DNA of 64,000 nt from the sequence record PV390659.2. One strand, 5' to 3'. The translations under genes and the position numbers were made by a program. The stretch is from Escherichia phage vB_EcoM_P8. Position 1 is the first letter of the stretch. Each line of letters begins with the position of its first letter. Below, piece after piece: positions 21,383 to 24,688 of the stretch. The notes under the pieces were generated by a model. It did no database searches. It saw nothing but the letters and a program-made list of their open reading frames with translations, and was not told where the DNA came from.

Positions 21383-21717
21383 TGAATTTAACTGATATAA
21401 TTGATAATTGTCTTGAAAATGATACTGGCGATCATAGAGCGCTTGATTCTGAAACAGCACAGTTCATTAGAATAACTTTAATGAATGATACTCTAGTGAA
21501 TAGCATTCATCCTTCTGTGTATGATGCTATTATTGTGACGAAGTATCCAGTTGAGCTTCACAAAAAGATGGCTGGTGCAATTTTCATTGATAAGAAAAAC
21601 CGCTTTAAAGATGGGCAGAATATAATTAGTTCTGTTATTAAAAGTATAACTAAACTTCGTCACGAAATTTATCGTGTTGAAACTGCTAAATCTGCTTATC
21701 TGGTGATTATGAAATGA
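21379..21717 (+). CDS. Hypothetical protein
   Basis: 112-aa ORF; stop overlaps cd start. Confidence 0.45.
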   Translation: MMNLTDIIDNCLENDTGDHRALDSETAQFIRITLMNDTLVNSIHPSVYDAIIVTKYPVELHKKMAGAIFIDKKNRFKDGQNIISSVIKSITKLRHEIYRVETAKSAYLVIMK

Positions 21718-22295
21718 AAGCGAGTACAGTACTTCAAATTGCATATTTAGTATCACAAGAATCAAAATGTTGCTCCTGGAAGGTAGGAGCAGTAATTGAA
21801 AAGAATGGACGTATTATTTCTACCGGATATAATGGTTCACCTGCCGGGGGTGTGAATTGCTGCGATTATGCTGCTGAGCAAGGTTGGTTGCTGAATAAGC
21901 CTAAACATACTATCATTCAAGGTCATAAGCCTGAATGTGTATCATTTGGTTCAACTGATCGTTTTGTCTTGGCGAAAGAACATCGCAGCGCTCACTCTGA
22001 ATGGTCGTCTAAAAATGAAATTCATGCTGAACAAAATGCGATTTTGTTTGCTGCACGAAATGGTTCTTCAATTGAAGGTGCTACTATGTATGTAACACTT
22101 TCTCCTTGCCCAGATTGTGCAAAAGCAATAGCTCAATCTGGAATTAAAAAGCTAGTTTATTGCGAAACATACGATAAAAATAAACCTGGCTGGGATGATA
22201 TTCTGCGAAATGCAGGTATTGAAGTGTTTAATGTTCCTAAGAAAAACTTGAATAAGTTAAACTGGGAAAATATCAACGAATTCTGTGGTGAATAA
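21714..22295 (+). CDS. cd: dCMP deaminase
   Basis: 193 aa; cytidine/dCMP deaminase zinc-binding motifs (HAEQNAI ... PCPDCAKAI). Confidence 0.9.
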   Translation: MKASTVLQIAYLVSQESKCCSWKVGAVIEKNGRIISTGYNGSPAGGVNCCDYAAEQGWLLNKPKHTIIQGHKPECVSFGSTDRFVLAKEHRSAHSEWSSKNEIHAEQNAILFAARNGSSIEGATMYVTLSPCPDCAKAIAQSGIKKLVYCETYDKNKPGWDDILRNAGIEVFNVPKKNLNKLNWENINEFCGE

Positions 22296-22896: not shown

Positions 22897-23232
22897 ATGT
22901 CTGAAGTACAACAGCTACCAATTCGTGCTGTCGGTGAATATGTTATTTTAGTTTCTGAACCTGCACAAGCCGGTGATGAAGAAGTTACAGAATCAGGACT
23001 TATTATCGGTAAACGTGTCCAAGGTGAAGTTCCTGAACTGTGTGTAGTTCACTCTGTTGGTCCTGATGTTCCTGAAGGTTTCTGCGAAGTTGGTGATTTG
23101 ACTTCTCTTCCAGTTGGTCAAATTCGAAACGTTCCGCATCCTTTTGTAGCTCTGGGTCTTAAGCAGCCAAAAGAAATTAAACAAAAATTCGTTACTTGTC
23201 ACTATAAAGCTATTCCGTGTCTTTATAAGTGA
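22897..23232 (+). CDS. 31: Head assembly co-chaperonin gp31 (GroES-like)
   Basis: 111 aa, [30 protein letters not shown]...; matches T4 gp31. Confidence 0.9.
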
Positions 23233-23379
23233 TATAAATAATAATATGAATTGGGTGTCGGAATAATAAGTTAACCGAACAATTCTATGTGGTAGTCTAC
23301 AACTGAGAGATCTGTCGAAAGAAGATGAAATTCAGAAGAACGTGACTACCGAGTTTTAATCTCTAACGAGAATTTTTAA

Positions 23380-23628
23380 ATGATTAAACAATTACAACAC
23401 GCTCTTGAACTGCAACGAAACGCATGGAATAATGGTCACGAAAACTATGGCGCATCTATTGATGTTGAAGCCGAAGCCCTTGAAATCCTGCGTTATTTCA
23501 AACATCTGAATCCTGCTCAAACTGCATTAGCTGCTGAGCTCCAGGAAAAAGATGAACTTAAATATGCTAAGCCTCTGGCTTCTGCTGCACGAAAAGCAGT
23601 TCGTCACTTTGTGGTAACACTGAAGTAA
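23380..23628 (+). CDS. rIII: Lysis inhibition accessory protein rIII
   Basis: 82 aa; size and position downstream of gene 31 as in T4. Confidence 0.65.
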   Translation: MIKQLQHALELQRNAWNNGHENYGASIDVEAEALEILRYFKHLNPAQTALAAELQEKDELKYAKPLASAARKAVRHFVVTLK

Positions 23629-24026
23629 TTTATTGGAGATTCACTGCCCTAGTGTGAGCTAAAATCGAGGAGCCGTCGAACTGTCTGATTAATGATTTGC
23701 GAATAATTATAGTTTTAAGACCCCGACAGTTTTACGGTGTACCTCTTGAATGTTATTCTTATAGCGGCAAGTGCATGCTACCCCGAGGTGATGGCCAATC
23801 GGGAGTACGCCTCAAGGCCTATATATCCATCAGTATATATCTTATCCTCGAGAAATCGAACCCGGAACCTTTAAGCTAACGGTGTGCAACAGATAAGAGC
23901 TATAAGGTATGATGACGGGTTTATGGTTATCCTGGTCGTTAAATATTCAAAAACCTATGTTCCCCTTGAGGGCTTGCGCAGGCAATGCCAATAAGTCCTG
24001 CATTTTCATTTAAAAGAGAATTTATA

Positions 24027-24203
24027 ATGGCAAAACAAGCTAAAGCAAAGAAAGCAGTTGAAAAGAAAGTTGGTGATTCTAAACGCGCTGGTTACAAGCG
24101 TGGGTCGAACTCTCGTATCAATCAAACTGTTGAGAAGATCATGCGCCGAGCACGTGCGGTTCTTCGAGATGATGCTTCTCGTTTTGGTAAGCAGAAAGCA
24201 TAA
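24027..24203 (+). CDS. Hypothetical small basic protein (30.9-like position)
   Basis: 58 aa from MAKQAKAKKAVEKK...; followed by a strong terminator. Confidence 0.45.
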   Translation: MAKQAKAKKAVEKKVGDSKRAGYKRGSNSRINQTVEKIMRRARAVLRDDASRFGKQKA

Positions 24204-24208
24204 GTTGA

Positions 24209-24236
24209 GGACTCCTTCGGGAGTCCTTTTTTATTT
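24209..24236 (+). terminator. Intrinsic terminator
   Basis: GGACTCC-TTCG-GGAGTCC (UUCG tetraloop) followed by TTTTTTATTTT. Confidence 0.65.
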
Positions 24237-24256
24237 TCCAAAGATTACACAAAGTT

Positions 24257-24306
24257 GTTTACAGTATAGTTCCTTTGTGATAGTATTATCTCATACAAAC
24301 AAAGGA
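24257..24306 (+). promoter_or_regulatory. Early promoter with inverted repeat reaching the downstream SD
   Basis: GTTTAC 24257-24262; A/T-rich -10 region; arms TCCTTTGT (24271-24278) / ACAAAGGA (24299-24306), the 3' arm overlapping SD AAGGAG. Confidence 0.45.
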
Positions 24307-24313
24307 GAATAAA

Positions 24314-24646
24314 ATGAAAACGATTAATCTGAACGCTACAGTTAAAACTAAATGCTTCAACGGTAAATATGATGAAACTATGTGGTTCTTAATGGCAGTT
24401 GAAGGTGATATTATTGAAGTAGAAACAACAGAAGGTATGGGAACAGATTTCACCTTTACAATTCAAGTTCATAATTTCTTTACTGGTTGGATTTATGAAT
24501 TGAATACAGTAATCGTTGGAAAAATTGAACAAAATGAATTAGGTGAATGGTATTATGTTACAGCTCGCCAACGTGCCGAACGCTTAATTGAGAAGATGAA
24601 AAAAGTTGGTAAACTTGACATGCAGCACTGGAAAGTAGTAAAATAA
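24314..24646 (+). CDS. Hypothetical protein
   Basis: 110-aa ORF with SD AAGGAG and early promoter upstream. Confidence 0.5.
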   Translation: MKTINLNATVKTKCFNGKYDETMWFLMAVEGDIIEVETTEGMGTDFTFTIQVHNFFTGWIYELNTVIVGKIEQNELGEWYYVTARQRAERLIEKMKKVGKLDMQHWKVVK

Positions 24647-24648
24647 TT

Positions 24649-24688
24649 GTTTACTTTGGTACAGGATATGATATTATATACCTGTACC
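24649..24688 (+). promoter_or_regulatory. Early promoter with 8-bp inverted repeat around the -10
   Basis: GTTTAC 24649-24654; TATTAT 24673-24678; arms GGTACAGG (24658-24665) / CCTGTACC (24681-24688). Confidence 0.5.

Follow-up and report, generated by a model that had tools for sequence, protein, structure and literature searches.

The question posed by this locus is what fills the 398 nucleotides (nt) between genes rIII and 30.9 of Escherichia phage vB_EcoM_P8 (PV390659.2). The 64,000 nt stretch of DNA that was analysed, hereafter the window, is that of a T4-like coliphage; in it the rIII stop codon (TAA) occupies 23626–23628 and the ATG of 30.9 lies at 24027, which leaves a gap at 23629–24026. 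An original prediction, made from the sequence alone, had marked exactly these coordinates as an unusually long, GC-richer non-coding island with short inverted repeats, and had named a structured non-coding RNA, a decayed gene or mobile-element remnant, and a cis-acting site as candidates. The analysis reported here indicates that the central 149 nt (23758–23906), referred to below as the core, are almost certainly a real, conserved structured RNA; this candidate was strongly upheld, but for the core only.

No other internal stretch of the window runs as far as the gap without an ATG-initiated open reading frame (ORF) of at least 45 amino acids on either strand. Counted to a spurious in-frame upstream ATG of 30.9 its ORF-free length is 356 nt, and the runner-up measures 147 nt. 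At 41.7% GC, compared with 36.2% on average for the window, the gap ranks in the top 6% of 398-nt windows. The surplus is limited to the central 149–150 nt (47.3%, top 1.6% of 150-nt windows), with near-average values in the left (38.8%) and right (37.8%) parts. The GC-rich string cited in the prediction corresponds to 23781–23819, i.e. hairpin P2a with its loop plus the following strand. The whole gap is 100% identical to that of Escherichia phage vB_EcoM_BMB16, a Tequatrovirus.

Fold of the core RNA

The elements of the core, all on the + strand, are as follows.

23758–23906, + strand: core structured RNA, the GC-rich island proper; 149 nt, scoring 191.6 bits with covariance model R1
23758–23765, + strand: 5' strand of P1, CTTATAGC, which pairs with GCTATAAG at 23899–23906 and closes the module
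23766–23768, + strand: P2, GGC, pairing with GCC at 23817–23819 and completing the four-way junction
23769–23776, + strand: conserved internal-loop strand AAGTGCAT, facing CTCAAG at 23811–23816
23777–23810, + strand: P2a hairpin, with 5' strand 23777–23786, loop 23787–23798 and 3' strand 23799–23810; A23804 and C23808 are bulged
23789–23794, + strand: kissing-loop strand TGATGG in the P2a loop, pairing with CCATCA at 23827–23832
23820–23839, + strand: P3 hairpin, TATATA 23820–23825 with TATATA 23834–23839; its 8-nt loop (23826–23833) contains the second kissing strand
23840–23898, + strand: P4 domain; P4 itself is TCTTATC 23840–23846 with GATAAGA 23892–23898
23848–23851 with 23856–23859, + strand: P5, with a GAAA loop at 23852–23855
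23860–23864 (ACCCG) with 23880–23885 (CGGTGT), + strand: P6, with its loop at 23865–23879
23886–23891, + strand: J6/4, GCAACA

P1, P2, P3 and P4 join without an unpaired base to give a perfect four-way junction. The P4 arm holds a three-way junction with the P5 GNRA hairpin, the P6 hairpin and a near-invariant stretch, AGCUAACGGUGUGCAACAGAU, which runs from the P6 loop through the 3' strand of P6 and J6/4 into the start of the P4 3' strand. The short inverted repeats of the original prediction thus exist, as helices of this structure.

Compensatory changes were first spotted by eye and then formalised on two alignments. The first, made with MAFFT from 21 distinct sequences, gave 93.9% pairing over six helices (39 pairs), as compared with at most 44% for slid partners, and 18 pairs showed changes on both sides. 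A model-guided alignment of 33 distinct sequences, which takes in the divergent copy of Yersinia phage fHe-Yen9-01 (locus L055; 108 bits), gave 95.1% pairing over seven helices (42 pairs) against 24–42% for slid partners; 23 pairs were changed on both sides, and none of 500 shuffles equalled the observed values on five measures. Since P2 and P6 were both absent from the model that generated the larger alignment, the support for these two helices is not circular.

Among the individual helices, P1 has seven of its eight pairs changed on both sides, occurring in the versions TAAAC/GTTTA, TTATAAGC/GCTTATAA, CATAC/GTATG and ACAC/GTGT. P2 is 100% paired, its C-G being replaced by U-A in L055 and by U-G in L088. 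In P2a, six of the seven core pairs are changed on both sides with all cells paired, and the three outer pairs covary in phages EnC07 and EcS1; P3 has three pairs changed on both sides. P4 and P5 covary, and P6 is invariant save for one G-C to A-U replacement in L055. The loops of P2a and P3 are joined by six contiguous Watson-Crick pairs in every variant, of which there are four: CGAUGG/CCAUCG, UGAUGG/CCAUCA (the window), CUAUGG/CCAUAG and CAAUGA/UCAUUG. The formal count for this kissing helix is 99% paired, with three of the six pairs changed on both sides. The P5 loop is mostly GAAA or GUAA, of the GNRA type, and UAAA or UAAU in a few sequences.

Invariance is seen at AAG.GCAU of the P2 internal loop (AAG strictly and GCAT nearly so in the 33 sequences), at CCCGGA and at AGCUAACGGUGUGCAACAGAU. 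AGCTAACGGTGTGCAACAGAT is invariant in all 21 distinct sequences of the first alignment, although this constancy of AGCTAACGGTGTGCAACAGAT and AGCUAACGGUGUGCAACAGAU is partly expected, several sequences having been gathered with patterns containing part of the stretch; the L055 copy, detected by covariance model, is the sole one to depart from it, at one base. The alignment suggests an A.G / A.N / G.A arrangement beside P2; a K-turn at this place was rejected, the G.A order being off consensus.

Conserved U-G pairs are found on the + strand, for example in 30 of the 33 sequences at one P3 pair. As these would be A-C mismatches on the other strand, and as the GNRA loop also reads on +, the element is taken to be an RNA of the + strand, which is the strand of rIII and 30.9. 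The same pairs disfavour a DNA site, so that a cis-acting site, as originally proposed, could exist at the RNA level only.

Three further pairings were considered and set aside. GGCG/CGCC, which would link the P2a loop to the strand 3' of that hairpin, is not kept in phages 4S, EcS1 and EnC07 and its 1-nt linker is geometrically implausible; GGCC/GGCC is missing in EcS1 and L055; and a UGCAUG/UGUGCA pseudoknot, possible but left out of the model, has bases that are all invariant, competes with P6 and is weaker in L055.

The centroid fold of the window core alone reproduces the comparative helices (energy z = -1.96). Three considerations weigh on the other side. Folding energy gives only a weak signal (z = -1.4 to -2.0); the sequences are of limited diversity, with about six lineages accounting for most of them, so that the shuffle controls overstate significance; and P6 and P2 are supported by one compensatory event apiece, in L055. 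The slid-partner controls and the count of distinct pair types are more reliable than the shuffles, and both are clear.

Conservation and distribution

In a blastn search of 50,697 phage records, 993 matched part of the gap and 179 matched at least 80% of it. The core is carried by about 410 of the 993, in one copy per genome and in many enterobacterial T4-like genera; among the carriers are vB_EcoM_BMB16, JS10, ACG-C40, Citrobacter phage Moon and Klebsiella phage Mineola. Between genera it is 85–96% identical (over the central ~135 nt aligned by blastn) and the surrounding flanks are unalignable; phages of Klebsiella, Enterobacter, Citrobacter, Serratia, Yersinia and others match at this central part and nowhere else in the gap. 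The rIII proteins of phages sharing the core across genera are only ~70–77% identical to that of the window and, judged by these identities, the core is under much stronger constraint than the adjoining genes. Unpaired positions vary less than paired ones (14 of 65 against 34 of 84).

Model R1, built in the course of this analysis, finds the core in 17 of 42 rIII-anchored IMG/VR loci, always just 3' of rIII on the coding strand; the most divergent copy, that of fHe-Yen9-01, came from this search. Run with the speed filters off, R1 detected no core remnant in T4, in T2 or in 16 further loci that lack the core. The comparison proposed with the original prediction showed T4 and T2 to be without the core and to have the rest of the spacer in common with the window. 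The T4 spacer, of 244 nt, is identical to that of the window minus ~160 nt, the T4 deletion allele corresponding to a loss of 23747–23907 (T23747 through T23907), and the boundaries of presence and absence lie a few bases outside P1, flanking the stem. In T2 the core is replaced at the same place by an unrelated segment of ~45 nt, so that three alleles are seen at this site: the core, the T2-type module, and neither (T4). The T2-type module reads ACUAUCACGCGUCAGAAAAAGGUUAUCUGUCUAAGYCGUGGUUGG (locus L002, ~1625–1675; also in L028, L034–L036, L039, L041 and L043), and its loop has GGUUAUC, as does that of motif B, a second conserved element of the spacer (23909–23954, see below). Depending on the genus, the core stands before or after motif B and 80–150 nt from the start of 30.9. 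Tequatroviruses with and without it share their downstream leader, and close relatives that differ in its presence also encode the same 30.9 protein.

Wider homologues were sought in several ways. An exact 21-mer and a gapped pattern run against IMG/VR returned enterobacterial T4-like phages only, as did blastn with the most divergent copy as query. Scans of metagenome and GTDB genome collections with an 18-mer gave close phage copies and no bacterial copy; in 185,579 species genomes there was a single chance match (R1 score 10.4 bits). In 5,426 complete Escherichia coli genomes blastn gave no match at E values up to 10, and hence no host-RNA copy or mimic.

Comparison with known RNA classes

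When 1.2 kb around the gap was scanned with the 4227 covariance models of Rfam 15 at E values up to 10, no match fell inside 23629–24026. A scan of 176 nt with laxer filters gave only two truncated C/D-box matches, at 7.6–9.8 bits against cut-offs of 39–100; these are the ATGATGA of motif B, just outside the core, and were discarded. The divergent L055 copy likewise had no Rfam match on the core. ARAGORN found no tRNA or transfer-messenger RNA in the whole window, and a GGTTCGA-like string proved to be on the minus strand within the P5 stem. The Rfam and tRNA searches proposed with the original prediction were thus negative, which does not refute the structure because covariation is independent evidence.

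T4 encodes two stable RNAs of 119–139 nt, rnaC and rnaD (species 1 and 2), which are cut from longer transcripts of the tRNA cluster. Like the core they are small RNAs of T-even phages, but they lie at a different locus, are unrelated in sequence and occur in T4, which is without the core; R1 with filters off scored at best 7.1 bits (E = 0.59) on a 6-kb stretch of the T4 tRNA cluster. Word-level likenesses to SAM-I (CUUAUC...GAUAAG, CCCGGCAACC), to the fluoride riboswitch (GGCGAUGG, AGCUAAUG) and to RNase P RNA (ACAGAACCCGGCUUAUC) had no covariance-model backing and were dropped.

The lysine riboswitch (RF00168) has a five-way junction in which the terminal loop of a long bent arm kisses the loop of the adjacent arm, with further tertiary contacts. 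It shares with the core, in architecture only, a multi-helix junction closed by P1 and a kissing helix of ~6 bp between adjacent arms; in contrast, the junction of the core is four-way and fully paired, and it has no Rfam match, recognisable expression platform or lysine-related context. Purine-type aptamers, of ~70 nt, have a three-way junction whose unpaired strands form the ligand pocket. In them too adjacent hairpin loops pair, the arms lie side by side and P1 closes the domain, whereas the core is 149 nt long, with a fully paired four-way junction, an extra three-way-junction domain and no Rfam match.

A literature search by locus, phage group and literal sequence found no description of the core. 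In GenBank record FN868251 (phage LZ9) the space between the annotated rIII and 30.9 is left empty. Other public records place mutually inconsistent "hypothetical protein" ORFs over the core or spacer (L001, 2507–2632; L003, 1569–1866; L002, 1569–1775), and PP445228 labels the interval "glycogen branching enzyme". These calls look like annotation artefacts on an RNA element.

Possible function of the core

The position of the core in its transcription unit is set by two further features.

23629–24026, + strand: the whole rIII–30.9 intercistronic spacer, 398 nt, predicted to be co-transcribed with both genes
24207–24228, + strand: intrinsic-terminator-like hairpin with T run after 30.9, which would close the rIII–30.9 transcription unit

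No sigma-70-type promoter-like or terminator-like site was scored in 23629–24026. Because of this, and because a strong terminator-like site follows 30.9, the gap is probably an intercistronic segment of an rIII–30.9 transcript.

By the comparative evidence the core folds by itself into a compact domain, in which P1 opens into the four-way junction and the long arm (P2, internal loop and P2a) meets the short arm P3 through the 6-bp kissing helix. In the explanation favoured here it would be transcribed within the rIII–30.9 message and may act as an autonomous RNA module, uncoupled from any downstream expression platform, whose invariant surface would be offered to a partner constant among enterobacterial hosts, be it a small molecule or a macromolecule of the host. 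It could act from within the mRNA or once excised from it, and as an accessory element it would be gained and lost by homologous recombination within the rIII–30.9 spacer.

Whether the core is in fact an autonomous partner-binding RNA domain we regard as an evenly balanced matter. Autonomy is suggested by the T4 boundaries just outside P1, the variable order with respect to motif B, the variable distance to 30.9, and the leader and 30.9 protein shared by relatives with and without the core. The shared leader and the variable distance also argue against a classical riboswitch, in which P1 competes with an expression platform. A host-invariant partner is suggested because the single-stranded bases are near-invariant across phages of seven host genera (Escherichia, Klebsiella, Enterobacter, Citrobacter, Serratia, Yersinia and Edwardsiella); no complementary target sites for the invariant single strands were found within the window. 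By analogy, the patchy accessory distribution suggests a pattern like that seen for host-takeover or counter-defence functions.

The case against an autonomous, partner-binding domain has four parts. The action of the core is deduced from sequence comparison and a predicted fold; the partner is one that we infer; a cis-regulatory role would account equally well for the constant place of the core in the 30.9 leader, 5' of the gene; and T4 and T2 thrive without the core, so that its effect may be subtle.

A tentative proposal, which we consider possible rather than probable, is that the core belongs to a new class of complex-folded phage RNA, as its aptamer or catalytic domain. Such an RNA might sense a host metabolite or immune signal, work as a ribozyme, or act as a decoy against a conserved enterobacterial factor, for instance a nuclease or defence protein; the loss of the core from the model phages T4 and T2 would explain why it escaped notice.

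A cis-acting leader of 30.9, either riboswitch-like or a protein-binding operator, is unlikely, and is the alternative that survives best. Binding of a metabolite or protein would here alter translation, Rho access or RNase attack on 30.9 or on the 3' end of rIII. The core has part of what such a role calls for: a covarying, aptamer-like fold in a same-strand 5' leader, always upstream of 30.9 on the + strand of what is predicted to be one transcription unit, a leader that is long and structured throughout. Further hallmarks of an aptamer are the closing P1, the multi-helix junction, the loop-loop and GNRA elements and the invariant junction bases. An expression platform, however, was not recognised: no terminator-like site lies between the core and 30.9, and neither a terminator nor a helix sequestering the Shine-Dalgarno sequence overlaps P1. 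Moreover, the sequence 3' of P1 is motif B in some genera and a different hairpin, motif C, in others, with 80–150 nt remaining to the start codon; close relatives with and without the core have a downstream leader and 30.9 protein of identical type; and a four-way junction without unpaired bases offers none for a pocket.

A catalytic role for the core, by self-cleavage or otherwise, in processing the rIII–30.9 message is improbable. The complex fold, the near-invariant internal-loop and junction bases, and the self-contained module with a sporadic distribution, like that of small ribozymes in phages, would all suit a ribozyme. The hairpin ribozyme in its natural four-way form also has a perfect four-way junction that juxtaposes two adjacent arms; in that ribozyme two internal loops dock, whereas in the core two terminal loops base-pair. 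The core has no match to RF00173, nor, at E values up to 10 with lax filters, to the Rfam models of the hammerhead, twister, twister-sister, hepatitis delta virus-like, pistol or hatchet ribozymes. Nor was a conserved candidate site of cleavage identified, and a new ribozyme class has a low prior.

Pairing of the complementary loops between molecules, to give dimers or rings, is a very improbable reading. It is modelled on the phi29 packaging RNA (pRNA), which is also phage-encoded, 120–170 nt long and endowed with two loops of covarying complementarity; in pRNA the loops of one molecule pair with those of another, and the RNA works for the packaging motor. The 6-nt complementarity of the core loops covaries, covariation is blind to whether pairing is intra- or intermolecular, and the two arms are unequal (~19 stacked layers against 6 bp). 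Nevertheless, the loops lie on adjacent arms of one junction and the internal loop could bend the long arm back. T4-type packaging needs no RNA; the core belongs to the early/late accessory region of a T4-type phage, is without homology to pRNA and has no match to it in Rfam.

That the gap is a decayed protein gene, a mobile-element remnant or a DNA-level site (origin, recombination or packaging) can be dismissed as scarcely credible: the annotations of T2 and several other records do have small "hypothetical protein" ORFs there and the segment is present or absent between close relatives, but coding and mobile-element tests were negative and the compensatory changes and + strand G-U pairs indicate RNA. 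Variable positions of the core number 13, 18 and 17 by codon phase, with no period of three, and every core sequence has at least one stop codon in all six frames. ORFs annotated over it in relatives are in different frames, and EcS1 has indels of 4, 2 and 7 nt; no alignment of the gap to a protein-coding gene in relatives was obtained. The 60-amino-acid ORF pointed out originally (23697–23879) is present, with a TTG start; neither it nor the 68-amino-acid ORF of T2 has a Pfam or PHROG match. Unlike a miniature inverted-repeat transposable element, the core occupies a single site in each of 410 records, is always situated between rIII and 30.9, and has one match in the window; its end "repeats" are the covarying P1 stem, and no terminal repeats or target-site duplications were seen by eye at the junctions with T4 and T2. 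PeSL cassettes, in which a stem-loop and an early promoter flank variable genes of T4-type phages (Arbiol et al. 2010, PMC2839356), are likewise short non-coding modules where these genomes shuffle. The core differs in being a 149-nt multi-helix RNA in a gap where no promoter-like site was scored, the nearest early-type promoter (24258–24286) lying past the 30.9 terminator.

The remainder of the spacer

The other modules of the window spacer, judged informally and with hairpins read from the sequence, are three.

23629–23757, + strand: left module, GC 38.8%, common to T4 and T2 and absent in other genera (Moon, EcS1, EnC07)
23909–23954, + strand: motif B hairpin, with loop TTTATGGTTAT, consensus UUGUAGGUUAU (11 nt); also in T4 (L009)
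23959–24001, + strand: motif C hairpin CCCCTTGAGGG and the next hairpin GCAGG...CCTGC, in the 30.9 leader; also in T4

Across 34 related loci the rIII–30.9 spacer ranges from 120 to 416 nt and always consists of small hairpin modules in varying order; it is non-coding in every enterobacterial T4-like phage examined. Within the left module are two GGAG motifs and two hairpins, TAATGATT-TGCG-AAT(A)ATTA and ACCCCG...CGGTGT. The latter (23720–23742) reads ACCCCG-ACAGUUUUA-CGGUGU, and its stem words nearly match those of P6 in the core (ACCCG...CGGUGU), a likeness that could be due to chance or to partial duplication. The GGAG motifs, at 23646–23649 and 23668–23671 just 3' of rIII, include one in the loop of a small CGA...UCG hairpin; GGAG is the target of the T4 RegB endoribonuclease. 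RIII has been reported to modulate RegB via ribosomal protein S1 (PMC9409239).

Motif B is a conserved 45-nt element with a stem that covaries among GAC/GTC, GGC/GCC, GTC/GAC and GTGG/CCAC (26 variants, L028–L066). The hairpin is preceded by (G)UAUGAUG (ATGATG in the window) and followed by CGUUAAAUA...AAAAC (CGTTAAATA...AAAAC in the window). In Klebsiella and Serratia phages the motif precedes the core, and in Tequatrovirus, Moon, EcS1 and EnC07 it comes after it; it is unannotated in all sequence records examined. A 34-amino-acid ORF that starts at its ATGATG (23909–24013) was rejected: it is not conserved, has 2–16 codons in other genera, and lacks the ATG in some.

Further modules were noted in the spacers of L028–L066, namely GUACCCCUUGAGGGCUUG, a GGGAGC...GCUCCC domain with CGAAAG repeats, UUGCC-GNRA-GGCAA, and GAGAGGU...ACCUCUC. 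Another is a hairpin over the Shine-Dalgarno region of 30.9 (UUUCUCCAAAAUGGAAGA). In Yersinia phage fHe-Yen9-01 the leader of 30.9 (L055, 2008–2100) has a sub-threshold match to the Rfam ribosomal S15 leader (17.6 bits, E = 0.07).

Genomic context

Gene names at the locus were assigned by alignment to the annotated T4 record. The + strand order is cd, 31.2, 31.1, 31, rIII, the gap, 30.9 and 30.8, in which the following were located.

21714–22295, + strand: cd
22897–23232, + strand: gene 31
23380–23628, + strand: rIII, upstream neighbour of the gap, aligned with the annotated T4 rIII
24027–24203, + strand: 30.9, downstream neighbour of the gap, 58 amino acids
24258–24286: early-type promoter TTTACA...TAGTAT, 3' of the 30.9 terminator
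24314–24646, + strand: 30.8

A T4 late-promoter motif, TATAAATA, is found at 23233–23240, upstream of rIII and directly after the gene 31 stop codon; it opens the second-longest ORF-free stretch of the window, the 147 nt (23233–23379) from gene 31 to rIII. The 30.9 protein is very basic and highly conserved across genera (SKRAGYKRGSN.RINQ...RRARAVLRDDASRFGK), and gave no match in Pfam, NCBIfam or PDB. Weak Rfam matches to Atu_C8 and Phe_leader correspond to the terminator-like hairpin after 30.9. Promoter-like sites appear again after 30.8 (24615–24677). The terminator and promoter sites at 24207–24286 and 24615–24677 are PeSL-like units, which flank the structured spacer and are not part of it.

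Significance

The core is rated a new family of complex-folded structured RNA and not a categorically new system; none of the established classes against which it was tested accommodates it. The T-even phages are the most closely studied, yet it matches no Rfam family and is absent from the literature searched, and annotators leave the interval empty or call small, inconsistent "hypothetical proteins". Its architecture is typical of ligand-binding, protein-binding or catalytic RNAs. As T4 is a natural, clean deletion allele, function is directly testable between near-identical phages. Should the partner prove to be a host factor or a component of host defence, the core would give the T4 family an accessory or counter-defence function based on RNA. 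Were its role only modest, the whole rIII–30.9 spacer is still a conserved, module-shuffled structured leader worth annotating.

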